Virus record (IMG/VR): IMGVR_UViG_2541047728_000014
DNA: 53,998 nucleotides
Origin: a virus
Lineage: Duplodnaviria > Heunggongvirae > Uroviricota > Caudoviricetes
Direction: 5' to 3' (one strand)
Shown: in pieces, positions 9,094 to 51,894 of the stretch
How positions within the stretch are numbered: the stretch's first letter is position 1
How the letters are laid out: every line of letters begins with the position of its first letter
The notes under the pieces: model-generated
Told to the model about the DNA's origin: nothing
What the model saw: the letters and a program-made list of their open reading frames with translations, nothing else
Database searches by the model: none
Made by a program: the position numbers and the translations under genes

Positions 9094-9177
9094 TGCAAGT
9101 ATGGCCTTACCTTGTCTGCAAGTTTACAAAATGGAATTTTAAGATCAAGGCTTAAAATACACGTTTTGTGACTTGCA
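9094..9177. promoter_or_regulatory. cI / early-operon divergent control region with ~27-bp inverted repeat and TGCAAGT repeats
   Basis: TGCAAGT at about 9094, 9117 and inverted at 9171; arms TGCAAGTTTACAAAATGGAATTTTAAG (9117-9143) and the reverse complement of 9150-9177 are near-identical; candidate leftward promoter TTGATG-16-TATTTT on the minus strand. Confidence 0.5.
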
Positions 9178-9207: not shown

Positions 9208-9855
9208 ATGAAAACAAAATGGTATGACTTAGCAAAGCAGCTCATGCGGGCGCAGGGCATGAGCCAGGATTCACTCGCGGATCGTATGGGGATAACTAAA
9301 GGCGGCCTGTCACACTGGCTGAACGGTCGCCGAGAGCCAAATCTTGAAGATATTGCGCGGATTATGCGCGAGCTTGGTCGTCGGCAGTTTACTGTTACAC
9401 ATGATGGCATGGTCATTGATGATTCTGTTTCTAATACACTTCAGGCCGTGCCGCCGCGTGATTTAGGTAGTTACCCGGTTATTGACTGGAAGGACACAGT
9501 AAACAATATGGATGACGCAAGGCGTTCAGCATTACGACACGTTACGACTAGCGTTATTTGTTCAGATGACAGTTACTGGCTGGTTGCCAAAGGTGAATCA
9601 ATGAACGCGCCGCAGGGGTTGAGCATCCCGGCGGGGACGATGATACTTGTGGACCCGCACGCGCCAGCTATTGACGGCAAACTGGTTATAGCCCAGCTTG
9701 AGGAAGGGCAGATACCGACGTTTAAACAGTTGATTATTGATGGAGGTCAAAGGCTTTTACGTTCGCTCAATCCGCTGTATCCGCCAATCCCTATGAATCC
9801 AGAATCAAAAATTATAGGCGTGGTGGTTGATGCGAAGATCGTAAACCTGCCATAA
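9208..9855 (+). CDS. cI: CI-like prophage repressor (HTH plus S24 LexA-like peptidase domain)
   Basis: 215 aa; N-terminal HTH (MSQDSLADRMGITKGGLSHWLNGRREP); C-terminal S24 domain with GESMNAP (Ser) and TFKQL (Lys) dyad. Confidence 0.9.
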   Translation: MKTKWYDLAKQLMRAQGMSQDSLADRMGITKGGLSHWLNGRREPNLEDIARIMRELGRRQFTVTHDGMVIDDSVSNTLQAVPPRDLGSYPVIDWKDTVNNMDDARRSALRHVTTSVICSDDSYWLVAKGESMNAPQGLSIPAGTMILVDPHAPAIDGKLVIAQLEEGQIPTFKQLIIDGGQRLLRSLNPLYPPIPMNPESKIIGVVVDAKIVNLP

Positions 9856-9886: not shown

Positions 9887-9978
9887 CCTGGAAAACACCA
9901 AAACGTAAACAGAAAACGTTATTTATTATTTAAATATCAATGGCATATAAAATATTTTAAAAAAGTATACAAAATGGA

Positions 9979-10007
9979 TTGACTCGATGTTTTACGGGGC
10001 GTATATT
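9979..10007 (+). promoter_or_regulatory. Candidate pL-like early promoter
   Basis: TTGACT-N17-TATATT (-35 at 9979-9984, -10 at 10002-10007), preceded by an AT-rich tract and a GTATACAAAATGG motif copy; about 350 nt upstream of the N-like gene. Confidence 0.45.
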
Positions 10008-10261
10008 GCGAGTCAAAGGAAGGGCGCAGGTAACAAAAGCAACTTCCTGGCACTTTAAAAATCAGGCTTAACACCTTGTCAACCGTGGAGTAACTCCCCG
10101 ATGGGGGACCGAAAGCGGCACTGATAACAAGGCGCATGGGGTGTTTAAAGCGTTACATCCCCCACGAAACCGCACGCAAGGCGACGAGTCAGCTTGCTTG
10201 GAGTGAGCAAGGTCACGCCGGGAACGGCGATGATTGCGGGATTAGTTGAAAGATGTTAAGC

Positions 10262-16372: not shown

Positions 16373-16876
16373 ATGGAAAGGGTGACAATTGACAGGTTAT
16401 TAGCCTGCGTTTATGTCGCCGTTTTTGTGATCATCAATCTTATTGTTAATCATTGCGGCCCGTGGGTAATTCCGATCACCACGGTAGCCGCCGTGTGTGT
16501 CAATATGATGATCCGTGACCTCCTGTTATATGACGGCGGCCTGAAATGGTCGGCTACAACATGCGCCGCCGCTGGCGCAATCACGGTGCTGATAAATTAC
16601 GACGCCGGAATGGTGGCGATCGCGTCATTCGTTGCGGTTGTTTCCGGTGCACTTATTTCTGGCGGCGTTTACCGGGTTTTGCCTGGTGGCTTTGATTCTA
16701 AACGTTGGCCTGCAAATATAGCGTCCGCCATTGGTGATGCGTTAATTTTTCCTACGCTATCGTTTATGGCGTTTATGCCGGAAATATCAGCTATGCAATT
16801 CATCTCAAAAATGGCAGCGGTAACGGTGATCACCATCATTATGCGCCGCTATTTCACGTTTGAGGGTAGAAAATGA
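16373..16876 (+). CDS. Polytopic membrane protein, possibly YhhQ/DUF165-like queuosine-precursor transporter
   Basis: ORF 16331..16876; start placed at MERVTIDR; several hydrophobic helices; weak resemblance to YhhQ motifs (MIRDLLLYDGG, IGDALIFPTLSFMAF); family assignment unverified. Confidence 0.35.
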   Translation: MERVTIDRLLACVYVAVFVIINLIVNHCGPWVIPITTVAAVCVNMMIRDLLLYDGGLKWSATTCAAAGAITVLINYDAGMVAIASFVAVVSGALISGGVYRVLPGGFDSKRWPANIASAIGDALIFPTLSFMAFMPEISAMQFISKMAAVTVITIIMRRYFTFEGRK

Positions 16877-17631
16877 GCAGGGCTAAACATTGGTTAAATA
16901 ATTGGCTTAGAAGTTGGGTGGTGTGGTCGCTGTACGACGGCAGCGGGTACGCCGTTAAAGATTGGGCGGAAGCTGGATATAAGTGCTATTGCTTCAACTA
17001 TGACGGCGCAAATCACGGAGATTATGAAGGCGTTAAAATCATTCATCCAAATATTGAATACGTTAACGTCTGGATTGATAGCCATTTCCTGGTAATGTTC
17101 TCCCCTGAATTGTCTGTTTATCCAGAGCCTGACATTATCCTGGGCTTTCCTCCATGCGACGATCTCGCTGTGTCAGGCGCTCGCTGGTTCGTTGATAAAT
17201 ACAGGAAAGATCCTTGTTTTCAGAATAGGGCGGCAAGAAACGCAATGTTGGTTGAATCTCTGGCTAACATGTATAACGTGCCGTGGATGGTGGAGAATCC
17301 TGTTGGTGTGCTGTCAACGCTATGGCGTAAACCGGATTTTATCTTCAATCCTTGCGCTTACGGTGGCTACCTGCCGGAAGATGACAAGCATCCTGCTTTC
17401 CCTGATGTTTACCCACCGCGCGACGCGTACACGAAGAAAACTTGCATATGGTGCGGCAACGGATTCAGGCAGCCGCTTTTTAGACCTGTAGATCTTAACT
17501 CTGGTGATAACCCTGGGTGGGCGAAAACCGGAGGCAGGACGAAACGAACAAAGATGATCCGCTCACTAACACCGCGTGGCTTTGCCCGTGCTGTATTCCT
17601 GGCTAACCATGACCGCGTTTTATCGGACTGA
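16873..17631 (+). CDS. Truncated C5-cytosine-methyltransferase-like protein (PCD instead of PCQ, no obvious target-recognition domain)
   Basis: 252 aa; motif I-like LYDGSGY, motif IV-like ILGFPPCDDLAVSGARWF, motif VI-like MVENPVG with canonical spacing; CIWCGNG Cys pair near the C-terminus; too short for a canonical C5 MTase. Confidence 0.5.
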   Translation: MSRAKHWLNNWLRSWVVWSLYDGSGYAVKDWAEAGYKCYCFNYDGANHGDYEGVKIIHPNIEYVNVWIDSHFLVMFSPELSVYPEPDIILGFPPCDDLAVSGARWFVDKYRKDPCFQNRAARNAMLVESLANMYNVPWMVENPVGVLSTLWRKPDFIFNPCAYGGYLPEDDKHPAFPDVYPPRDAYTKKTCIWCGNGFRQPLFRPVDLNSGDNPGWAKTGGRTKRTKMIRSLTPRGFARAVFLANHDRVLSD

Positions 17632-17633
17632 AG

Positions 17634-17713
17634 TTTACAAAATGGCGTCATTGCGTGATATGGATCACATAATGGCGCTTTTCGCCTTGTTCTGGTGTAT
17701 CCATTTTGTATAC
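17634..17713. promoter_or_regulatory. Intergenic regulatory region: inverted pair of TTTACAAAATGG motifs flanking a CRP-like palindrome
   Basis: TTTACAAAATGG (17634-17645), GTGATATGGATCACA (17655-17669), CCATTTTGTATAC (17701-17713); between the MTase-like gene and the ninF-like gene. Confidence 0.45.
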
Positions 17714-38384: not shown

Positions 38385-38414
38385 AAGGGGGCTATTTAGC
38401 CCCCTTCCTTTTAG
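38385..38414 (+). terminator. Rho-independent terminator after the major tail gene
   Basis: Hairpin AAGGGGGC-TATTTA-GCCCCCTT followed by CCTTTT. Confidence 0.6.
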
Positions 38415-38424
38415 GGTGAAGACT

Positions 38425-39102
38425 ATGATTCATGTTCGTACCGGACAATTTGTGGCTATGGTGAACGGTAAGCGCTATGAATTTAACCCGTGTTTCGCTG
38501 CGATGGCTAAAATCGGTAATGACAGGGAGCTTGTGGAATATTTCGCAACCATCCACGGTAGCAAATACCCTTCACGATTACCTACAGATCCAGACCTCCG
38601 CAATCGCATTATGGCGCGGTGTTATGGTGGGATAGTGCAAACGTCAATGCACATCCTGAAATGTTGCTCAGACGACGAAACAGGCCCGTTATTGGGCGAA
38701 TGCTGGTTTACTCCTTCGGGCAAATTAAGGTTAAAGCCCGGAATAATGCCAGTTGATGATGTTATTACGCTGGCGCAACACTGCATGTACCACGGTTTAA
38801 TCGGTGACGGGCCGGAAGAAAATACAAGCGAGATCCAGGAAGGTGAATACAAGCCGACATTTGATGTACTTGATTTCGTTTATTCTGCCGTTGCTCATCT
38901 GGGATTATCTGAATCAGAAGCGTGGAACATGACAATGACCGGATACAGGGCCGCAGTGCGCGCTAAAACGCCGCCAGACGAAAGAAATGAAAGAAGTAGA
39001 CCAAATGTTCACATAAATAAACGTGCTTATGACGAGCAAATGGAGGCCGCTAAAAAGGCGCTAAAAAGAATGGAAAATCGCAAGCAAGAAAAAGCCCGGT
39101 AG
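38425..39102 (+). CDS. Putative tail assembly chaperone (by position)
   Basis: ORF 38416..39102; ATG at 38425 after AGGGTGA RBS; lies between major tail and tape-measure genes; no frameshift partner seen. Confidence 0.4.
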   Translation: MIHVRTGQFVAMVNGKRYEFNPCFAAMAKIGNDRELVEYFATIHGSKYPSRLPTDPDLRNRIMARCYGGIVQTSMHILKCCSDDETGPLLGECWFTPSGKLRLKPGIMPVDDVITLAQHCMYHGLIGDGPEENTSEIQEGEYKPTFDVLDFVYSAVAHLGLSESEAWNMTMTGYRAAVRAKTPPDERNERSRPNVHINKRAYDEQMEAAKKALKRMENRKQEKAR

Positions 39103-39124
39103 ATCCGGGCGTTTGTCTTATTTG
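39088..39124. terminator. Bidirectional terminator between the convergent chaperone and secreted-protein genes
   Basis: Hairpin GCCCGG-TAGAT-CCGGGC flanked by AAAAA upstream and GTTTGTCTTATTT downstream. Confidence 0.6.
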
Positions 39125-39531
39125 ATTCTAACAATATCAATAAAACCGTTACCTAAATCGACAATTGCGTGATTTTTTGCACCAGCGCCGCCTTTATTAA
39201 AAATTCTTTCAGCGAAAGCAACTTTATTTGCTTTGCACTCGTTAGCTATCCTGTTTTTTATTTCGCTGTTGTTTTCAAAGACTACGCCTACAGCAGCCTC
39301 GTTTACAAGGCCATAATTAAACCAACGAGCATAAGCTGGTTTACCTTCAAAATTTTTATCAATTGCCTTAAAAAGAATTGTGGGTGCGGCTGGTTCTTTT
39401 TTGATCATGTCGTGATATGCGGCTACATGGTTTGCCACTTCTTCACAGTTAATGTTTATGGCCTCGTTAGCGTTAGCGTTAAATGCTAGTGCAGCAATCA
39501 CAGCAAGCACCATTTTTGCTAACCGTTTCAT
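39118..39531 (-). CDS. Secreted (signal-peptide) protein of unknown function; moron inside the tail module
   Basis: ORF 39118..39537; ATG at MKRLAKMVLAVIAALAFNANA (Sec-type signal peptide); reverse orientation to the surrounding tail genes. Confidence 0.55.
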   Translation of the reverse strand: MKRLAKMVLAVIAALAFNANANEAININCEEVANHVAAYHDMIKKEPAAPTILFKAIDKNFEGKPAYARWFNYGLVNEAAVGVVFENNSEIKNRIANECKANKVAFAERIFNKGGAGAKNHAIVDLGNGFIDIVRIK

Positions 39532-39834
39532 AATCAACCCCCTGTAATTATTCTGATTTGCTAAATGCTTCCTTTAACTTAGTTATACACGCATATTGTT
39601 TATTTTTTAAGTGCTTTTAACATTTCTTCGATAAGGTCCGCATAGCGTTCATATTCGTTGGGACGGTAGTTTACGTTTCTCATTTTCTTATCCTCTTTCA
39701 CTTCCTCCGGGACATCCGGCCTTCCTGCATCTCTTCTATCTTTCTCTACATCATCTATACAAAACGGTATCGTTAAAATAAAGACATTTTGTATAAAATA
39801 GATACATAGATCACATTTTGCATGAGGTTAAATC

Positions 39835-42177
39835 ATGGCTACCAGTGTAGGCACAATTTATTACGAAGTTGACGCAAAAACAGGACAACTTCTTGTAGCA
39901 CAACGACAGGCAGACCAGGCCTTTGACCGTATAGAGCACGGTGCTAAACAGGCCGATCGCCAGGTAAACACACTGAAAACATCAATCAAAGCACTGACCA
40001 GGGTTATCCATCTGCTAATTGCTGCCGAGGCCGTTAGACAGTTTATGGAAATGGCAGAGCAGGCCAAAATGCTACGCGTCAAAATCAAAATGCTTACAGG
40101 CGACGCGGAATCTGCCGGGCGGGTTTTTGATGGTCTGAAAGAAATATCCAGGGAGACGGGGCAGAGCCTGAAAGATACTGGCGAATTATGGCAAGGCCTG
40201 GCTATCTCACTAAAAAACACCTCCGCTACGGAAGGGCAATTGCTTAACCTGGTTGGCACTATTCAGAAAATGGGTGCATTAGGCGGCGCGTCAGCGGAAC
40301 AGATGTCTAACTCAATGCGTCAATTCCGTCAGTCTATCGACGGCGGTGTTCTTCGTGCCGAAGAATTTAACAGCCTGCTTGAAAATACGCCGACCATCGT
40401 ACAAACAATGGCCCGCCATATGGGATTATCAATGGGCCAGTTCCGCGCCGAAATGCTGGACGGCAAGATAACGGCTGAAAGGATGGTTAACGCAATACAG
40501 GCGGCTACGCAGGAAACAAACGATAAGTTTGCTCAGTTGCCGCGCACATCCGGCATGGCTATCAATGAGCTTAAAGTAGAAATTATGGGCCTTGTTGAGC
40601 AGTTGGATGATCTTTTTGGCGTGTCAGATGGCGTTGTTTCAGCTATCGACTTGATCACGAAAGGCGTTAAAGGGCTTGGCGATGGCGCTAAATTCGCTAA
40701 AACCTGCTTCGACACACTCAAAACGGCTGGTAGCGAATTTATCGACATGTTTGATGATGTGGCTGTTAAGGCTGGAGAGGTGGCAGAGAAGATCATCGCA
40801 ATGGTGACGCCAATCAAGGCGCTAATGGATGGCTATAAATGGATGAAGGAGGTAGTAGGAGAGCAAACCGACGAATATAACAGCAACTACGAGAAGAAAT
40901 ACGGGAAGACCGTTGGCAAGGTCATGCAACTACAGGATGATCTGACCGCAGCAATCCAGGCTACAGAAGAAGCAAGGAAAAATGAACAGAATGCTGCCAA
41001 TGACGGAGCGATTACCGGATTCGACAAGCCAGTAGACAAGCCGAAAAAACAGAAAAAAGAGAAGAAATCGGAAGCTGATCGGCTTGGTGACAAAGGTATA
41101 AGCGTTTCTGATCAGTACAACAAAGACGCCGCCGCCATGCGCAAAGCGTTGGAGAACGGCAAGGCCATTGATGCTGCATTTGCCCAGGGTAAAATCACGC
41201 TCCTTGAGTACCGCGCCGCGCAAAAAGGGATCGGCAAGGAACTGAAAGAAGAATTAGCACAAATTCCGGTAGATGAATTGCGTGATAAATGGTCACAAAT
41301 AGTAAGCCCGATGGATCAGCTAAAAGGCGAAGTTGACCCCATCCAGCAGGCGCAAAATGAATGGGCCATCCGTAAGCAAATGCTTATAGACCTGGGCGCT
41401 ACTGAAGCGCAACAGAAACAGGAATTGTTAGCCTATGAGCAACAGATCCGCGATCTGAAATGGGAACAATGGCAGGCGCAAAGCGACACAAACGGCCTTA
41501 TCGGTGATTGTGTTAATGGCCTTAAAGGCGGAATGAGTAATGCGCTTGTTGGCCTGTTAAACGGCACTCAATCATTGAGTGATGTTTTTGCTAACTTAGG
41601 AAGCAATATACTCGGCAATATCGGTAACAGACTCTCAGACATAGCTGCAAACTGGATAGCAGATCAGATCATGATGGAGACACAAAGCAAGGCCACGCAA
41701 ACAAGTACAACAGCAAGCGCGGTAGCAGCTCAGGGAAGCATTGCTGCGGCGGCGGCCCCAGCAGCGGCGGCAACTGCGGCGTCAACTGGCGGTAGCTGGG
41801 CGGCGGCTGGTTCGGCGGCGCTCACTGCGATCATGTCGCTGGCTACGTCAATTTTCGGCGGCGGTCGCTTTAATGGTGGTAGCGTCATTGGTGGTAATAT
41901 GTACCGCGTAGGGGAACACAACAGGCCGGAGCTATTCCAGACATCTAACGGCAATCAATATATGATCCCTGGCGAGAACGGCAGAGTTATTCCGGGCCGT
42001 GATATTGGCGGCGGTGGCGGTATTAGTATGCCTGTCAGTATCAGCATTCAGACCACGAACGGATTCAGCGACGAAGACAGCCGCAGACTTGAATTAACAA
42101 TGGAACGTGTAGCCATGAAAATGATAACAAGGGAATCTCAAAGACCAGGCGGAATGTTGCAACCTCGCCGCAAATAA
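39835..42177 (+). CDS. Tail tape measure protein
   Basis: 780 aa; long helical protein with Gly/Ala-rich tract (AAAAPAAAATAASTGGSWAAAGSAALTA); position between chaperone and minor tail genes. Confidence 0.85.
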   Translation: MATSVGTIYYEVDAKTGQLLVAQRQADQAFDRIEHGAKQADRQVNTLKTSIKALTRVIHLLIAAEAVRQFMEMAEQAKMLRVKIKMLTGDAESAGRVFDGLKEISRETGQSLKDTGELWQGLAISLKNTSATEGQLLNLVGTIQKMGALGGASAEQMSNSMRQFRQSIDGGVLRAEEFNSLLENTPTIVQTMARHMGLSMGQFRAEMLDGKITAERMVNAIQAATQETNDKFAQLPRTSGMAINELKVEIMGLVEQLDDLFGVSDGVVSAIDLITKGVKGLGDGAKFAKTCFDTLKTAGSEFIDMFDDVAVKAGEVAEKIIAMVTPIKALMDGYKWMKEVVGEQTDEYNSNYEKKYGKTVGKVMQLQDDLTAAIQATEEARKNEQNAANDGAITGFDKPVDKPKKQKKEKKSEADRLGDKGISVSDQYNKDAAAMRKALENGKAIDAAFAQGKITLLEYRAAQKGIGKELKEELAQIPVDELRDKWSQIVSPMDQLKGEVDPIQQAQNEWAIRKQMLIDLGATEAQQKQELLAYEQQIRDLKWEQWQAQSDTNGLIGDCVNGLKGGMSNALVGLLNGTQSLSDVFANLGSNILGNIGNRLSDIAANWIADQIMMETQSKATQTSTTASAVAAQGSIAAAAAPAAAATAASTGGSWAAAGSAALTAIMSLATSIFGGGRFNGGSVIGGNMYRVGEHNRPELFQTSNGNQYMIPGENGRVIPGRDIGGGGGISMPVSISIQTTNGFSDEDSRRLELTMERVAMKMITRESQRPGGMLQPRRK

Positions 42178-42263: not shown

Positions 42264-42518
42264 TCACTTATGAGTGCCTTTCACGCCACATAACTTGTTA
42301 TAGGCATGGTGCTCAACAATTAACCAAACCTTCAAATCTTCGCTAAACAGCCTCCAATCAAGATTGATATCCATTTTGTATCCGTAACCGTCGCGTAACT
42401 TTTTGGGGTAAACTTCTTTTCTCAGAAAGGCTTTAAGTAATTCCTTACCTTTCTTGATGATCCGGTCCTGTGCGTTTTTCTGTGCTTTCAGATTTCTGTC
42501 AATCGCTACCAGTTTCAT
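42264..42518 (-). CDS. Hypothetical small protein (84 aa), possibly RelE/ParE-superfamily toxin-like; second gene of a minus-strand two-gene cassette
   Basis: GGGGTGAG RBS; size and C-terminal LKVWLIVEHHAYNKL are loosely reminiscent of RelE/ParE/YoeB toxins; unverified. Confidence 0.4.
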   Translation of the reverse strand: MKLVAIDRNLKAQKNAQDRIIKKGKELLKAFLRKEVYPKKLRDGYGYKMDINLDWRLFSEDLKVWLIVEHHAYNKLCGVKGTHK

Positions 42519-42535
42519 AACTCACCCCATCATCC

Positions 42536-42691
42536 TTAGTTAAGTGCCTTCAGGAAGAAGTCCCGGTATTCATCTTCTTTCGCATTCATCATGAATTGAC
42601 CGTATTTGAATGCGTCGTCGAAACCCTTAACGATTGCTATTTCCACTTGTTCGAATGCGTTATTTAGCATTACTACTACATAGCGTTTCAT
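42536..42691 (-). CDS. Hypothetical small protein (51 aa), first gene of the minus-strand two-gene cassette
   Basis: Hand-called ORF MKRYVVVMLNNAFEQVEIAIVKGFDDAFKYGQFMMNAKEDEYRDFFLKALN with GAAGGAGG RBS; 17 nt upstream of the 84-aa ORF. Confidence 0.4.
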   Translation of the reverse strand: MKRYVVVMLNNAFEQVEIAIVKGFDDAFKYGQFMMNAKEDEYRDFFLKALN

Positions 42692-42760: not shown

Positions 42761-42845
42761 GCCATTTTGTAAACTAGCTATAATCATTGTGACAATGATC
42801 TTATTTTTCGCGTGGAAGCGCGTAAAGATATATACAAAATGTAAC
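42761..42845. promoter_or_regulatory. Divergent control region between the minus-strand cassette and gpM
   Basis: GCCATTTTGTAAAC (42761-42774), TATAAT (42779-42784), 17-bp palindrome ATCATTGTGACAATGAT (about 42783-42799), TATACAAAATGTAAC (42831-42845) 14 nt upstream of the gpM ATG. Confidence 0.5.
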
Positions 42846-46589: not shown

Positions 46590-49500
46590 ATGAGTAGCGG
46601 CGGCGGTAAAGCAAAAACACCGACTTTAATTAACGATAATCTATACCATAAACAATTTTATCGTGTACTTGATATTATTTCGGAAGGTCCGATTTATGGA
46701 CCTGTAAATACAAAAGCGCCATTAAATAGCGTGATGCTTAATGATACGCCTGTTACAGACGCGAACGGCAATACAAGTGTCCCTGGTGTTAGCGTGGCGT
46801 GGCGTAACGGCACGTTAGATCAATCACCTATTAACGGTTTTAACGCCATTGAATCAACCGTTATTGTTAACGCTCAGGTGAAACACGATACCCCAATAAT
46901 CAGGACTGTATCAGATCCTAACGTTGCGCGCGTTCGCCTGAATATCGGCGTCGATTCACTTGTACAATCTGACGAGCAAAGCAATCAACATAACACATCG
47001 GTTATGATGATGATTGATGTCAAGCCTTCATCTTCTTCTGCGTGGACGCTTGTTAAAGATGTCACTATAGGTCCGGGTAAGATCAGCGGAGAATATCTTG
47101 AAGCGCATATTATCAATGCACCAGATGAAAAGCCGTTTGATATTCGCGTTCGCCGTGTCACCGCTGATAGCACGAGCGATCTATTGCGGAATGGTACGCG
47201 ATGGAGTAGCTACAGCGAAATAATCGACGATAATTTGTCATATCCCCACACCGCTGTAGCTGGCGCGGTTATTGATCATGATCAGTACACTGATACACCT
47301 ACCCGCACTTATCACCTGCGCGGGCTGATTGTTGACGTTCCTGATAACTATAACCCGGAAACGCGCACTTATTCCGGTTTGTGGCTTGGCGGCTTCAAGA
47401 AGGCGTACACCAATAACCCAGCATGGATCTTCCGTTACCTGGTTAAAAACGAGCGTTTCGGCCTTGCCCGCCATGCTGGATACATTGACGTTGACGACGG
47501 CGCATTATATACGCTTTCTCAATACTGCGACCAGTTGGTAGATGATGGTTACGGTGGCCTTGAGCCTCGCGTGACGCTTAATGCTTACATTACAGAGCAA
47601 ATGAGCGCCCGCGATTTACTGGACAATATCGCCGGGATGTTCCGAGGCATCGCGTTATGGGACGGGCAACGCCTTACCGTGATGATTGATGCGCCACAAG
47701 ACCCGATCGCCACCATCACAAACGCAAACGTCGTTGATGGTGCGTTCACTCGTTCAAGTATCGCCCGCGCAGAATGCTACAACGCCGTGATTGTATCATG
47801 GACCGACCCGGAAAACGGCTGGGAGCAATCAAAAGAGTATGTGGCAGATGATGAGCTAATCGCCCGTGATGGTTATAACGAAACAACGTTGGAGGCGTTC
47901 GGGTGCACTTCACGCGGGCAAGCGTACCGCGCTGGCAAATGGCTGATAGAAACAGCAAAACGCGAGCCGTCAAAATTCACGTTTAAAATGGCCCGTGACG
48001 CAATTCACTTCACCCCTGGGGATATTATCGAGATACTCGACAATAACCGCGCAGGCGCTCGTTTGGGCGGTCGCATCGTGGTAAACAGTGGCAGGGTTAT
48101 CACGGTCGATAAAGTTGATTCTGAATATATCGCCCCTGGTGACACCATTAGCTTGCTTGATAGCGATGGCAAGTTTAAAAAACACCAGATCACTGGAGTT
48201 AGCGGAAACAAAATTACCCTTGCATCCGCCCCGGCATGGATTCGTAACGGTACTGTTTTTGCTGTATCAACCAACGCAGCAAAACCCGTTTTATGTCGAA
48301 TCACCAGCGTAGCAGAAACAGAAAATAACAGCGTATACACCATCGAGGCCGCACAGCATGATCCACATAAGCAGGCCGTAGTCGATAATGGCGCAATCTT
48401 CGAGATCAATAACGACACGCTTAATCACTTCCGCGTGCCGAACATTGAAAATCTGAAGGTGTTAAACGTTGGATCTGAAACGGTTCAATGTCGCGCAACA
48501 TGGGAAACACAGACGACAACGCGTCGCCTGACCTTTGAGATTCGCGTGTATAACGCCGACGGCGCTGTGGTTAAAAGCTACGAAACTACGAATTACAGTT
48601 ATGATTTTTATGGCATTGATTCAGGAACCTACTCATTAGGCATTCGCGGTCGTAATGATACGGGCATGAAGGGCGCTGAGAGTGTAGTTGATCTGGTTAT
48701 TGGTGCACCAGCAGCCCCGATTGGCGTTAATTGGGTTCCTGGTGTATTCCAGGCAACAGTGTATCCGATCAGCAGAACAACGCTTACCACTGATACCAGT
48801 TACGAGTTTTATTACTCAGGTGAAACACAGATCACCGACCCGGCATCAGTAACCACTAAAGCACAATATACGGGGCGTGGTCATCAGTGGACGTTTGGCG
48901 GCATGAATACAGGTCACATATATTACGTTTATGTGCGCACGCGTAACGCTTTTGGTGTGTCTGACTTTGTGGAAGCGTCAGGTAAGCCAACAGAAAACTT
49001 TGACGAAATTACCGATTACGTCACCAAAGACGTAATGAATTCCAAACAATTTAAAGAAATGGTTGGTGACATTAAAGATCTAGGCGACCGCACTGATCTT
49101 ATCGAAAGCGCTACGAATGACCTTAAAACTGCTACTGACAACCTCAAAACTGCAACTGATAATCTGACCAATATAACTGACGATTTAAGGACTGAAACTG
49201 ACAACCTAACCATAGAAACAGGATTAATAAAAGCTGACACGGACACACTTAAAAAAGAAACGGAAGATCTTTATAAAAAGGTTAAGGAAAACGCCGATGA
49301 TATTGGACAGCATGAGTCGAGAATCGACTCGCTAGAGGTGTCTAGCGAAAAAGTTGGCAGCGAACTAGCGCAAGCAAAAGCAAGTCTGCAAAACGCCTCA
49401 CTTGCTCTTATTAATAACTCGCTTGCACAGACTAACACTCGCGTAACTCTTACCGCTCAGTACAAGAAAGGCAGGACAGAGACGAAAGCGGAAATTGACC

Positions 49501-51452
49501 GCATTGACAACGTTATCGCTGAAGAGAAAAAAGCGACAGCGGAATCACTGGAAACCATCACGGCAGAAATGAATGTGATGGACACAAACCTTAAAGGTCA
49601 GATCTCTAATGTGCAACGCGCAGTAGCTGACGAGGCCAGCGCTCGCGCTGAAGCTATTAACGGTGTAAATGCCTCAATAAGCAATCTTGACAAGAAAACT
49701 GACGCCAGCGTAAACCGTCTTGATCGGGCAATTGCAGACGAAACAAGTGCGCGTACTCAGGCTATCAGCGACGTGAACGCAAGTATCTCAACGCTTGACA
49801 AGAAAACTGACGCCAGTGTTAAGCGCCTCGATAAGGCAATATCAGATGAAACGCAGGCAAGAAGCGACGCAATAACAGTGGTTAAAGCTGATTTAACAAC
49901 GCTTGAAAATAACACAAATGCCAGTGTTAGCCGTCTTGATCAAGCTATCGCTGACGAATCAAGCACACGCGCTCAGGCGATATCAGGTATCAGCGCGTCG
50001 CTTGGCAGCGTTAAAAGTGAGGTTGATAAAAACAGCGACGAGATAGTTCAGGCGAAAGCAGGTCTGCAAAACGCATCTCTGGCGCTTATTAATAACTCAA
50101 TGGCGCAAAGCAAGATGAGCACTGTTATTGAGGCGAAATACAGGAAAGGACAAACAAAAACAAAAGCGGAAATAGCAAGGGTAGACACAGCAATCGCAGA
50201 TGAGGCGAGCGCACGCGCAGAAGCTATTAGCGGGATTAATGCGTCAATTTCCACGCTCGATAGCAAGGTGACAAGCAACGTAACCAGGATGGATAAAGCG
50301 ATCGCAGATGAGAAGAATGCACGCACTGACGCAATCAGCAGCCTTAACTCATCGCTTACCAGTACGATTAATTCGAAAGTATCCGAAGTGTCAACTGCAC
50401 TTTCTACGCATGAAACATCAAGCGCGGAAAAATTTGGCCAGATCTCGGCATCTTTCGACGATGTAAACTCAAGCATCACGGAATGGTCACAGGCTATGGC
50501 AACGGCAGACGAGGCATTGTCAACCAGAATCGACCAGTTGAAAGTAACTATTAACGGAAACACAACGGCGATAGAAACGACATCAAAAGCACTGACTGAC
50601 TTCAAAGGTAACGTTGATGCGTCATATTCAATTAAGATTGCCACTGATAAAAACGGTATGAAATACGCTACAGGAATGTCGCTCGGCCTTACTGGTAGCG
50701 GGACTAACGTTCAATCGCAGTGTATTTTCCTCGTTGACCGTTTCGTGCTTATGACTGCGGCAGGTGGCTCCTATCAGACCCCGTTCTATGTTACTAACGG
50801 TGCTTGCTACATCCGTGATGCGTGGATCAGAGACGCATCAATCACTACCGCGAAGATTGCGCAGCAAATTCAGTCAACCAACTATAAAGCTGGTTCGGCT
50901 GGCTGGATGCTAAATAAAAACGGCAATGCGGAGTTCAACAACGTCACTGTACGCGGTACGGTGTACGCAACATCTGGTAAATTCACTGGTGAGATTCAGG
51001 CCACAAGCGGGAAGTTTAAAGGTACAGTAGAGGCAAAGTCATTTGTCGGTGACGTTGCTAACATGGGGGTTGGTCCAGATCGAGTGCTTGGGCATAACGG
51101 AAGTTATAGCGCAACCATCACATATAAAGACAGCACGGATAATGCATTGACGAAATCAGTTATGCTTATGGCGACTATTTCATTAATGTCTGGTGAATAT
51201 AGATCCACTTATAACGTAACGTTTAGTTGCGGAGATAAAAACAAAACAATTTCATATTACGTGCCTTATGGTGGATGCACATTAACAGTGCAATGCGCTT
51301 TTTCTGGTTTAAAAGCATCAGATATTATCGGGAAAATATATTGTCCTCAAACATCATCATCTGAAGGATACGCATATTGTACCGCGTTGTATTCTCCAAC
51401 AATGATAGTAGCAAGAGGCACCGGATCATTTAGAACATCAACGACAGCATAA
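46590..51452 (+). CDS. Host specificity / central tail fibre protein J with extended repeat-rich C-terminal region
   Basis: 1620 aa; N-terminal two-thirds parallels lambda gpJ (KTPTLINDNLYHKQFYRVLDIISEGPIYGP ...); C-terminal part has tandem ~30-aa repeats (ADEASARAEAINGVNASISNLDKKTDASVNRLD...). Confidence 0.88.
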   Translation: MSSGGGKAKTPTLINDNLYHKQFYRVLDIISEGPIYGPVNTKAPLNSVMLNDTPVTDANGNTSVPGVSVAWRNGTLDQSPINGFNAIESTVIVNAQVKHDTPIIRTVSDPNVARVRLNIGVDSLVQSDEQSNQHNTSVMMMIDVKPSSSSAWTLVKDVTIGPGKISGEYLEAHIINAPDEKPFDIRVRRVTADSTSDLLRNGTRWSSYSEIIDDNLSYPHTAVAGAVIDHDQYTDTPTRTYHLRGLIVDVPDNYNPETRTYSGLWLGGFKKAYTNNPAWIFRYLVKNERFGLARHAGYIDVDDGALYTLSQYCDQLVDDGYGGLEPRVTLNAYITEQMSARDLLDNIAGMFRGIALWDGQRLTVMIDAPQDPIATITNANVVDGAFTRSSIARAECYNAVIVSWTDPENGWEQSKEYVADDELIARDGYNETTLEAFGCTSRGQAYRAGKWLIETAKREPSKFTFKMARDAIHFTPGDIIEILDNNRAGARLGGRIVVNSGRVITVDKVDSEYIAPGDTISLLDSDGKFKKHQITGVSGNKITLASAPAWIRNGTVFAVSTNAAKPVLCRITSVAETENNSVYTIEAAQHDPHKQAVVDNGAIFEINNDTLNHFRVPNIENLKVLNVGSETVQCRATWETQTTTRRLTFEIRVYNADGAVVKSYETTNYSYDFYGIDSGTYSLGIRGRNDTGMKGAESVVDLVIGAPAAPIGVNWVPGVFQATVYPISRTTLTTDTSYEFYYSGETQITDPASVTTKAQYTGRGHQWTFGGMNTGHIYYVYVRTRNAFGVSDFVEASGKPTENFDEITDYVTKDVMNSKQFKEMVGDIKDLGDRTDLIESATNDLKTATDNLKTATDNLTNITDDLRTETDNLTIETGLIKADTDTLKKETEDLYKKVKENADDIGQHESRIDSLEVSSEKVGSELAQAKASLQNASLALINNSLAQTNTRVTLTAQYKKGRTETKAEIDRIDNVIAEEKKATAESLETITAEMNVMDTNLKGQISNVQRAVADEASARAEAINGVNASISNLDKKTDASVNRLDRAIADETSARTQAISDVNASISTLDKKTDASVKRLDKAISDETQARSDAITVVKADLTTLENNTNASVSRLDQAIADESSTRAQAISGISASLGSVKSEVDKNSDEIVQAKAGLQNASLALINNSMAQSKMSTVIEAKYRKGQTKTKAEIARVDTAIADEASARAEAISGINASISTLDSKVTSNVTRMDKAIADEKNARTDAISSLNSSLTSTINSKVSEVSTALSTHETSSAEKFGQISASFDDVNSSITEWSQAMATADEALSTRIDQLKVTINGNTTAIETTSKALTDFKGNVDASYSIKIATDKNGMKYATGMSLGLTGSGTNVQSQCIFLVDRFVLMTAAGGSYQTPFYVTNGACYIRDAWIRDASITTAKIAQQIQSTNYKAGSAGWMLNKNGNAEFNNVTVRGTVYATSGKFTGEIQATSGKFKGTVEAKSFVGDVANMGVGPDRVLGHNGSYSATITYKDSTDNALTKSVMLMATISLMSGEYRSTYNVTFSCGDKNKTISYYVPYGGCTLTVQCAFSGLKASDIIGKIYCPQTSSSEGYAYCTALYSPTMIVARGTGSFRTSTTA

Positions 51453-51490: not shown

Positions 51491-51736
51491 TTATTTTTTA
51501 CACCCATCATTTACACCAGAAAAATGGATAGGTAAATTACATTCACTGTCAATAATTTTACCTTGTAGTTGTTTTTCTTTCCATGAGTCAGTATTGAAAT
51601 AACTCGAACGTTGGTTATCAAGGCCAGTATCACCATATTGAGCAGTGCCAGCATCACTCTTATCTGTCGAATTTACAGAAGCAAAAGCACCAAAAGACAG
51701 AGCTGATAAGATGCAAGCAACAATTAGTTTTTTCAT
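51491..51736 (-). CDS. Small secreted protein (81 aa precursor); moron between J and the side tail fibre gene
   Basis: ORF 51491..51793; ATG at MKKLIVACILSALSFGAFA (signal peptide) with AAGGTGA RBS; two Cys in the mature part; reverse orientation to the tail genes. Confidence 0.5.
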   Translation of the reverse strand: MKKLIVACILSALSFGAFASVNSTDKSDAGTAQYGDTGLDNQRSSYFNTDSWKEKQLQGKIIDSECNLPIHFSGVNDGCKK

Positions 51737-51850
51737 TGTATTCACCTTACTGTTTGTTTTACTGTCATTTGTTGTTCGTGATGATCCACCCATCCGATGA
51801 GCAAATCACCGCAGAAGCTATCATTTCGTATGTTGATATAGATCAAAAAA

Positions 51851-51894
51851 TACATTATGTATAAGATCAAAGTGTAACGCGGATTACAAAATGG
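51851..51894. promoter_or_regulatory. Divergent control region with TACATTATGTATA and ATTACAAAATGG motif copies
   Basis: TACATTATGTATA (51851-51863) toward the minus-strand secreted-protein gene; ATTACAAAATGG (51883-51894) followed by TAGAAT, 37 nt upstream of the tail-fibre ATG. Confidence 0.4.

Follow-up and report, generated by a model that had tools for sequence, protein, structure and literature searches.

The interval 39094-39834 of a 53,998-nucleotide (nt) stretch of viral DNA (IMG/VR record IMGVR_UViG_2541047728_000014; "the window" below means this whole stretch) is read here, with moderate confidence, as a self-contained moron operon on the reverse strand that occupies a hypervariable cargo slot and whose product would act at the cell envelope. 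The window represents an mEp021-like (mEpimmI) temperate coliphage, and the slot lies in its tail gene cluster between a gene of the DUF6246 family and the tape measure gene. In the order of the minus strand, the operon would comprise a control palindrome, a gene for a cytoplasmic micropeptide (C0), a ribosome-binding site (RBS) and Sec signal peptide that lead into a variable mature domain (together the cargo gene C1), and a bidirectional terminator. The features that delimit the slot are listed below by window position.

38416..39102, plus strand: left flanking gene, a DUF6246 / phrog_791 protein of 228 amino acids (aa) in the tail assembly chaperone position, from family matches.
39094..39110, both strands: bidirectional intrinsic terminator GCCCGG-TAGAT-CCGGGC, the left anchor of the slot, from a terminator scan.
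39118..39531, minus strand: cargo gene C1 for a predicted 137-aa exported protein, stop codon at 39118-39120, from the list of open reading frames (ORFs) and homologues.
39469..39531, minus strand: signal-peptide segment of C1, codons 1-21, MKRLAKMVLAVIAALAFNANA, with a predicted cut after ANA, read from the sequence.
39538..39543, minus strand: RBS of C1, AGGGGG, 6 nt before the ATG, read from the sequence.
39600..39683, minus strand: gene C0 for a conserved micropeptide, MRNVNYRPNEYERYADLIEEMLKALKK (27 codons and a stop), the first gene of the reverse operon.
39691-39695, minus strand: RBS of C0, GAGGA, read from the sequence.
39754..39797, both strands: conserved palindromic control region with TATACAAAACG at 39756-39766 (plus) and TATACAAAATG at 39795-39785 (minus), 18 nt apart.
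39835..42177, plus strand: right flanking gene, a tape measure protein of 780 aa (PF20155, E 4.6e-50; phrog_1538, E 2.9e-159).

The original prediction regarded this region as a moron-type insert on the strand opposite to its neighbours, and both the minus-strand ORF and the comparative evidence bear this out. We surveyed 76 IMG/VR loci with a DUF6246 homologue, plus GenBank phages and E. coli chromosomes, and defined E. coli-type loci as those with a DUF6246 identity of at least 68% (n=62). In relatives at 30-40% identity (for example survey loci L065, L070, L071, L079 and L080), the gap between the DUF6246 and tape measure genes is 21-166 nt. The same gap measures 646-1322 nt and is filled by minus-strand genes in 62/62 E. 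coli-type loci. The proportion of G and C (GC) in the slot is 36-39% (39050-39800) versus 47-50% in the flanks. In these two respects, flanks that abut in distant relatives and a low slot GC, the interval 39094-39834 conforms to the formal (Juhala/Hendrix) definition of a moron. The insert also carries a terminator of its own, a GC-rich hairpin with a T-run that is recognizable on both strands and conserved in relatives. Related phages, which had been proposed as a check, agree with this view: distant relatives lack the insert, and closer ones carry other cargo rather than a conserved structural gene. The slot flanks are present in 30 of 5,426 complete E. coli genomes, and at least five of the 30 have cargo of the window type.

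Two other parts of the original prediction did not survive. The junction had been called atypical for an insertion, but phage HK97 carries gene 15 at the same junction and the slot is occupied in every E. coli-type locus. The tail operon had also been described as otherwise co-linear, but the mEp021 tail module contains four reverse blocks (gp63, gp65-68, gp71-74 and gp80-81), and the tail region of the window has further reverse-strand ORF blocks at matching positions. The counterpart of C1 in mEp021 is gp63, a gene that is not treated in the description of the mEpimmI phages (PMC11893012).

The terminator predicted at about 39094-39110 was recovered by a scan of both strands. It consists of a 6-bp all-GC stem and a 5-nt loop with T-runs on either side, begins 7 nt after the C1 stop codon, and holds the stop codon of the DUF6246 gene inside its loop. 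Its CCGGGC arm is kept at the left edge in 18 representative slot loci, and terminators are annotated at the matching place in mEp021, mEp013, mEp515, mEp044 and mEp554.

In the ORF list, the C1 frame spans 39118..39537 (minus strand) from a TTG codon. The start is assigned here to the ATG at 39531, since every known homologue has MKRL as its first residues and the sequence GGGGG precedes this codon by 6 nt (39538-39542). The mEp021 record likewise has an annotated GGGGG RBS at the matching place. A word-indexed search gave 17 clusters of C1 homologues at 100-70% identity, all from E. coli, prophages or Caudoviricetes. That C1 might be a chance ORF or a decaying gene could be argued from its narrow distribution and from the lack of a database family match. 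This explanation has next to no probability: C1 has a good RBS, members of its family occur on well over 100 contigs, the alignment has 66 invariant columns including both cysteines, and the median ratio of non-synonymous to synonymous substitution rates (dN/dS) is 0.11 at dS up to 1.0 (35 pairs, 15 distinct nucleotide versions).

The micropeptide gene gives a similar picture. The original prediction listed a possible 27-codon ORF at 39599..39682; the gene proved to be real, although its true position, 39600..39683, differs by one base. C0 was present in 43 of the slot loci examined, where it precedes at least five unrelated cargo types, and in the phage collection it is confined to mEpimmI phages. 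Its median dN/dS is 0.05 (90 pairs), with up to 10 synonymous versus 0-4 non-synonymous changes, and its insertions and deletions are in-frame changes of 3 nt. From their dN/dS values, therefore, both C1 and C0 are real protein-coding genes under purifying selection.

Searches of C1 against Pfam, PHROGs, NCBIfam and PADLOC yielded nothing meaningful, and C0 and six other cargo proteins likewise matched no PADLOC defence model. The sole NCBIfam line, argB, scored 16 bits against a cut-off of 151 and was rejected as noise. Extending the search exhaustively, with a profile, to 1.84 billion representatives gained no true relatives; the extra hits were one fragment and three eukaryote-like repeat proteins, for which the summed E-values are inflated by near-identical repeats. 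Likewise, no copy of C1 was found in the plasmid collection. The family is thus described here as a new orphan family of predicted exported proteins, without relatives outside these prophages.

The original prediction also assigned a Sec signal peptide to the 137-aa protein, and the build of the N terminus conforms to this assignment, which was made by a sequence rule only. The segment MKRLAKMVLAVIAALAFNANA has a basic n-region (K2, R3 and K6), an 11-residue hydrophobic core (MVLAVIAALAF) and A-N-A before N22, a pattern kept in 13/13 aligned homologues. No lipobox of the form [LVI][ASTVI][GAS]C was found in C1, and residues 1-28 include no cysteine. The product is therefore classed as a predicted Sec / signal peptidase I secreted protein. 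Tandem AACGCT units encoding NANAN form the end of the signal peptide (39469-39486), and the homologue P0002 has one extra NA, which suggests slippage at this repeat.

Structure prediction, which had been proposed as a further check, did produce a fold but no match to a known one. In the AlphaFold2 model (predicted local distance difference test score 78, predicted template modelling score 0.76), the signal helix is followed by six helices and, at the C terminus, a beta-hairpin. There was no fold match in BFVD below E 0.29, and the sequence profile had no match in the PDB. Both C29 and C99 are invariant among homologues, which fits a disulfide formed in the periplasm.

One segment of C1, residues 37-73, weakly resembles an EF-hand helix-loop-helix (hhalign probability 79%, E 1.6e-5), and the proteins matched are true EF-hand repeats. 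The loop keeps positions 1 (D/N), 5 (E) and 6 (G) together with the following Trp. However, in the loop D58-K-N-F-E-G-K-P-A-Y-A-R69, Glu is replaced at position 12 by Arg/Thr/Lys, Pro occupies position 8, and position 3 varies. These departures, along with the absence of a Pfam EF-hand match, led us to reject membership in the EF-hand family, and by its sequence the loop is not a canonical calcium site.

The evidence for cargo exchange comes from the contents of the slot, where 10 or more modules, each encoded on the reverse strand, form about 20 combinations. The following modules were seen most often, and the others are rarer.

C0: micropeptide of 27-29 aa, 43 loci.
C1: exported protein (predicted) of 137/138 aa, 23 loci.
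C2: VasI/TagO-type lipoprotein of 219 aa (PF11319, E 2e-16), 19 loci.
C3: membrane peptide of 35 aa, 18 loci.
C6: lipoprotein of 124 aa, 13 loci.
C7: membrane protein of 100 aa, 12 loci.
C11: secreted protein of 119 aa, 6 loci.
C16: secreted protein of 165 aa, 2 loci.

Combinations include C0-C1, C0-C1-C3, C0-C3-C7, C2-C6, C2-C9, C0-C2-C6, C0-C11-C3-C7, C0-C1-C6 and C0-C16, and the 138-aa variant of C1 is located in this slot every time. With the exception of C0 and of C9 and C25, which carry no obvious export signal, the cargo proteins are predicted to be envelope-targeted, and lipoboxes are present in C2, C6 and C28. Close relatives swap C1 for other envelope-targeted proteins. A membrane peptide of 33-35 aa (the MDTIKTVIDVYITAWLAFNVMAVLVLAMTTEDKRN family) forms a separate module in loci L011-L016 (3417-3518), L005 and L009; it either follows the 138-aa gene or precedes that of the 100-aa membrane protein, and it is absent from the window.

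On the left, variable DNA ends at the CCGGGC terminator arm, and on the right it ends at a nearly invariant region of about 90 nt beside the tape measure start. A third conserved segment lies within the slot, where the RBS and first 60 nt of unrelated first-position cargos are alike (C1 versus C11 up to 83%, C11 versus C2 77%), with 25-39% identity downstream. The window's own RBS and first 60 nt are more diverged (47-59% identity). In a protein alignment of C1, C11 and C16 only the signal peptides align, and kinship of their mature parts was rejected for this reason. A shared 5ˊ adaptor of this kind is the pattern that would be expected from recombination within a common adaptor.

These exchanges also bear on whether C1 could be a tail-assembly or virion component that became inverted by chance, a view for which its place inside the tail cluster, adjoining the tape measure gene, might speak. 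We give this very little credence, because unrelated proteins replace C1 in sister phages with near-identical flanking tail genes, C1 is absent from distant relatives, and the predicted Sec export leads away from tail assembly in the cytoplasm. Moreover, mEp021 gp63 is annotated as 'hypothetical' and its neighbours as 'virion structural protein', a label that, judging from PMC11893012, was probably given to proteins seen by mass spectrometry. Both a structural role and a chance ORF are effectively excluded.

The control of the operon probably depends on the palindrome at its upstream end. The original prediction had reported motif copies upstream of C1, and two inverted copies of TATACAAAATG are indeed found in the upstream region 39532-39834, of which the plus-strand copy (39756-39766) has one mismatch. 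Both copies are present in 62/62 E. coli-type loci, and the control region is nearly invariant across seven phages. The motif is not restricted to the slot. Allowing at most one mismatch, the 11-mer occurs 17 times in the window versus 1.9 expected (0/100 shuffles reach 17), at positions 2193, 5149, 6291, 9123, 9966, 10645, 14088, 14542, 17634, 17702, 31145, 39756, 39785, 42372, 42763, 42831 and 51853, and its 9-mer core TACAAAATG has 15 copies versus approximately 0.7 expected. The extended consensus is TATACAAAATG[G/T]A. Phage mEp021 has 14 copies in a largely syntenic arrangement, and the motif is not described in PMC11893012. Most copies are intergenic, including several in gaps of about 30 nt between early genes. 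Copies at 9123 and 9966 flank the repressor gene (9208-9855; HTH_3 plus Peptidase_S24), and those at 42763 and 51853 lie upstream of other reverse-strand blocks in the tail region; mEp021 likewise has a site upstream of gp81.

Two candidate promoters can be drawn within the palindrome, and each slot copy of the motif lies upstream of one of them and over the -10 element of the other.

39782-39777 (-35, TTTATT) and 39759-39754 (-10, TATAGA), minus strand: candidate promoter toward the cargo.
39769-39774 (-35, ATCGTT) and 39792-39797 (-10, TATAAA), plus strand: candidate promoter toward the tape measure gene.

The same geometry recurs at three places, in which the motif is followed by 2 nt, a -35-like hexamer, 17 nt and a -10-like hexamer.

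At 9966: -35 TTGACT, -10 TATATT.
In the slot, group consensus: -35 TTCACT, -10 TATAAA.
In the slot, this window: -35 TTTATT, -10 TATAGA (degraded relative to its relatives).
At 42763: -35 TTCACA, -10 TATATA.

A sigma-70 promoter scan of the window returned no site at threshold. Just past the terminator of the repressor gene, TTGACT-17-TATATT at 9979-10007 comes close to the consensus of a sigma-70 promoter. The two arms of a perfect 8-bp inverted repeat (TTGACTCG at 9979-9986 and CGAGTCAA at 10009-10016) bracket it, the motif lies 2 nt upstream, and 9979-10016 is likely to be the early rightward promoter and its operator. Elsewhere, two inverted motif copies 57 nt apart (17634-17712) lie around a terminator, between a 252-aa ORF (16873-17631) and the NinG gene. 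The counterpart of this pair in mEp021 brackets the annotated terminator TERM_4, an arrangement that resembles the slot palindrome on a larger scale. A CRP half-site, TGTGA, is also present at 39811-39815 (minus strand), with a poor second half-site.

A phage DNA-binding protein, for which the repressor is one candidate, probably recognizes the motif, and the operon may therefore be under phage control instead of being expressed constitutively. A repressor of at least 90% identity is common to all slot-bearing contigs, and because every motif carrier has it, phylogeny does not separate the repressor from other binding proteins. Dispersed sites of this type resemble the 'stoperators' of some mycobacteriophages. 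We rejected the notion of a portable promoter, since contigs other than those of mEpimmI phages essentially lack the extended motif. An RNA element in the control region was likewise rejected, given no Rfam match at threshold, a fold z of -1.3 and an uncompensated mismatch in the window's palindrome. A DNA site is therefore favoured over an RNA element.

If the TATACAAAATG copies are repressor operators, the operon might instead be a lytic-phase accessory unit, silent in lysogens and switched on early after infection or induction, whose exported protein would serve in exclusion of secondary infection, protection against lysis from without or conditioning of the envelope. The T4 proteins Imm and Sp would be the model for such a lytic-phase role. 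This possibility, which we consider rather unlikely, draws on the repressor shared by the slot-bearing contigs, on the placement of motif copies around its gene, and on the overlap of each slot copy with the -10 element of a candidate promoter. In addition, a degenerate copy (9160-9170) sits in the spacer of a candidate leftward promoter, beside the -35 element of a candidate leaderless repressor promoter, in a manner like lambda OR; another copy abuts the strong rightward promoter at 9979-10007; and upstream of mEp021 gp81 the motif lies inside a candidate promoter core. However, the constant co-occurrence of motif and repressor leaves no case that would tell them apart, and an operator role is not obvious for the several copies in 30-nt gaps between co-directional early genes. 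Furthermore, a reverse orientation and a dedicated terminator within a late operon form the classic arrangement of a gene expressed from the prophage.

Under our preferred interpretation, that of a moron operon with an envelope-acting product, transcription would probably be set by a phage-encoded protein, perhaps the prophage repressor, bound at TATACAAAATG. The C1 product would be exported by Sec, cut after ANA and released as a periplasmic, disulfide-bonded helical domain with a degenerate EF-hand-like loop. Its genomic context suggests that it would act at the cell envelope to the benefit of the infected or lysogenic cell, and the likeliest role would be to keep superinfecting phage from entering, at a step in the periplasm or at the inner membrane. 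Envelope-level protection is thus the most likely function, with superinfection exclusion as the leading candidate, because HK97 gp15 is encoded at the same junction, Lpp021 provides a precedent, and nearly all alternative cargos are envelope proteins.

Several observations weigh against this interpretation. The window's own candidate promoter is weak (TTTATT-17-TATAGA), with none at the scan threshold, and the operon could be silent in lysogens should the motif prove to be an operator of the repressor. The cargo tracks tape measure type only loosely, in that type-A phages carry C1, C2-C6, C3-C7 or C2-C9, and in the five mEp phages it shows no correspondence with receptor type either. Because of this lack of tracking, the cargo is a poor fit to a strictly self-directed exclusion factor. 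Finally, the call that C1 is exported was made from its sequence alone.

The predicted location of the cargo would also suit a periplasmic immunity or inhibitor protein that neutralizes colicins, type VI secretion system (T6SS) amidases or phospholipases, or lysozymes, with the slot collecting orphan immunity-like genes that aid the lysogen in the gut. By sequence, the cargo types are periplasmic, lipoprotein or membrane proteins; a common alternative cargo is the VasI/TagO-type, T6SS-associated lipoprotein; and C1 is predicted to be a small, helical, disulfide-bonded periplasmic protein, a build common among such inhibitors. Nevertheless, C1 resembles known immunity proteins and lysozyme inhibitors in neither sequence nor fold, and the slot has no linked toxin gene. 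The function of TagO/VasI is itself unknown (PMC13584744). We consider an immunity role doubtful.

A more ambitious version of the preferred reading, which we offer tentatively and regard as unlikely in its full form, treats the slot not as a passive insertion hotspot but as a dedicated export-cassette platform under phage control. Its palindrome would belong to a regulon of 14-17 sites that also governs the immunity region and the other reverse-strand blocks, and C0 together with the RBS/signal-peptide adaptor would enable in-frame swaps of unrelated mature domains by homologous recombination. In this scheme, C1 would be a hitherto undescribed pseudo-EF-hand periplasmic factor that interferes with genome entry mediated by the tape measure protein.

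The wider context is that of the mEp021 group, the 'mEpimmI' phages, which are Nus-dependent and non-lambdoid and were reported to be as frequent as lambdoid phages among human faecal isolates (PMC11893012). Over 38400-40200, the window is 87% identical to phage MagusPhagus, with partial matches to mEp021, mEp013, mEp515, mEp044 and mEp554. Neither source names nor fold confirmed a chaperone identity for the DUF6246 protein. A second reverse-strand block (42264-42691, minus strand) follows directly after the tape measure gene and encodes an 83-aa protein with a ParE-like toxin domain (PF24732, E 8.7e-12). The ORF before it, of 51 aa, is a possible partner. Upstream of this block lies a candidate promoter of the form motif-GC-TTCACA-17-TATATA (42773-42732). 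Another reverse-strand ORF (51491-51793, minus strand) comes after a 1620-aa ORF (46590-51452) that holds the position of the mEp021 J tail-fibre gene. From an internal ATG it would encode a predicted secreted protein (MKKLIVACILSALSFGAFA|SVN...) with no lipobox and with the motif upstream at 51853, and it occupies the position of the mEp021 exclusion lipoprotein block.

A moron is an ordinary phage feature and current concepts are unchanged by this example, which is well delimited and adds testable candidates. The slot holds a compact set of uncharacterized envelope proteins exchanged by these prophages, including the 137-aa family, the 27-aa micropeptide, lipoproteins and membrane peptides, and these cargos are good candidates for superinfection-exclusion or envelope-protection functions in gut E. 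coli. Noteworthy in its organization are the micropeptide, which is conserved, the signal-peptide adaptor shared among cargos, and the motif that recurs across the genome. The anchors (terminator, control palindrome and signal-peptide adaptor) should ease the mining of further cargo from genomes, and the motif offers a way into the unexplored transcriptional circuitry of mEpimmI phages.

Among known systems, the closest in position is gene 15 of HK97, the first element to be called a moron, which lies between the tail assembly chaperone and tape measure genes and whose product blocks genome entry (PMC3594210). The two have in common the junction, a small envelope-targeted product and a dedicated terminator after the gene. 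However, gp15 is a YebO-like inner-membrane exclusion protein of 62 aa that is co-oriented with the tail genes and has no sequence kinship to C1. For C1, no meaningful Pfam or NCBIfam family pointed to gp15/YebO homology, and its predicted build is instead a soluble helical domain behind a signal peptide that would be cleaved. C1 also differs in its reverse orientation, its length of 137 aa, the micropeptide gene upstream and its status as one of many cargos.

A second parallel exists within the same phage group, in which the lipoprotein Lpp021 (gp81), when expressed, excludes mEp021 and mEp515 (PMC11893012). Like C1, Lpp021 and Lpp010 (and also Cor, Llp-type proteins) are exported envelope proteins encoded by reverse-strand genes of the tail module with TATACAAAATG upstream. 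In contrast to C1, which has neither a lipobox nor sequence similarity to them, they carry a lipobox, have been shown to confer exclusion and are encoded beyond the J gene.

The overall architecture recalls the defence hotspots of P2-like phages, in which unrelated cargos interchange among close relatives at a fixed site between conserved genes. The fixed position and the interchangeable cargo are shared with the slot. Unlike those hotspots, the slot has envelope-targeted cargo that belongs to no known defence family, and its first cargo genes share an RBS and signal-peptide adaptor, often with a leader micropeptide. At the level of the protein, C1 can be compared with Spackle (Sp) of T4, a helical protein that inhibits the tail lysozyme in the periplasm. 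Spackle is small, Sec-exported, helical and disulfide-containing and acts in the periplasm, and the same is predicted for C1.

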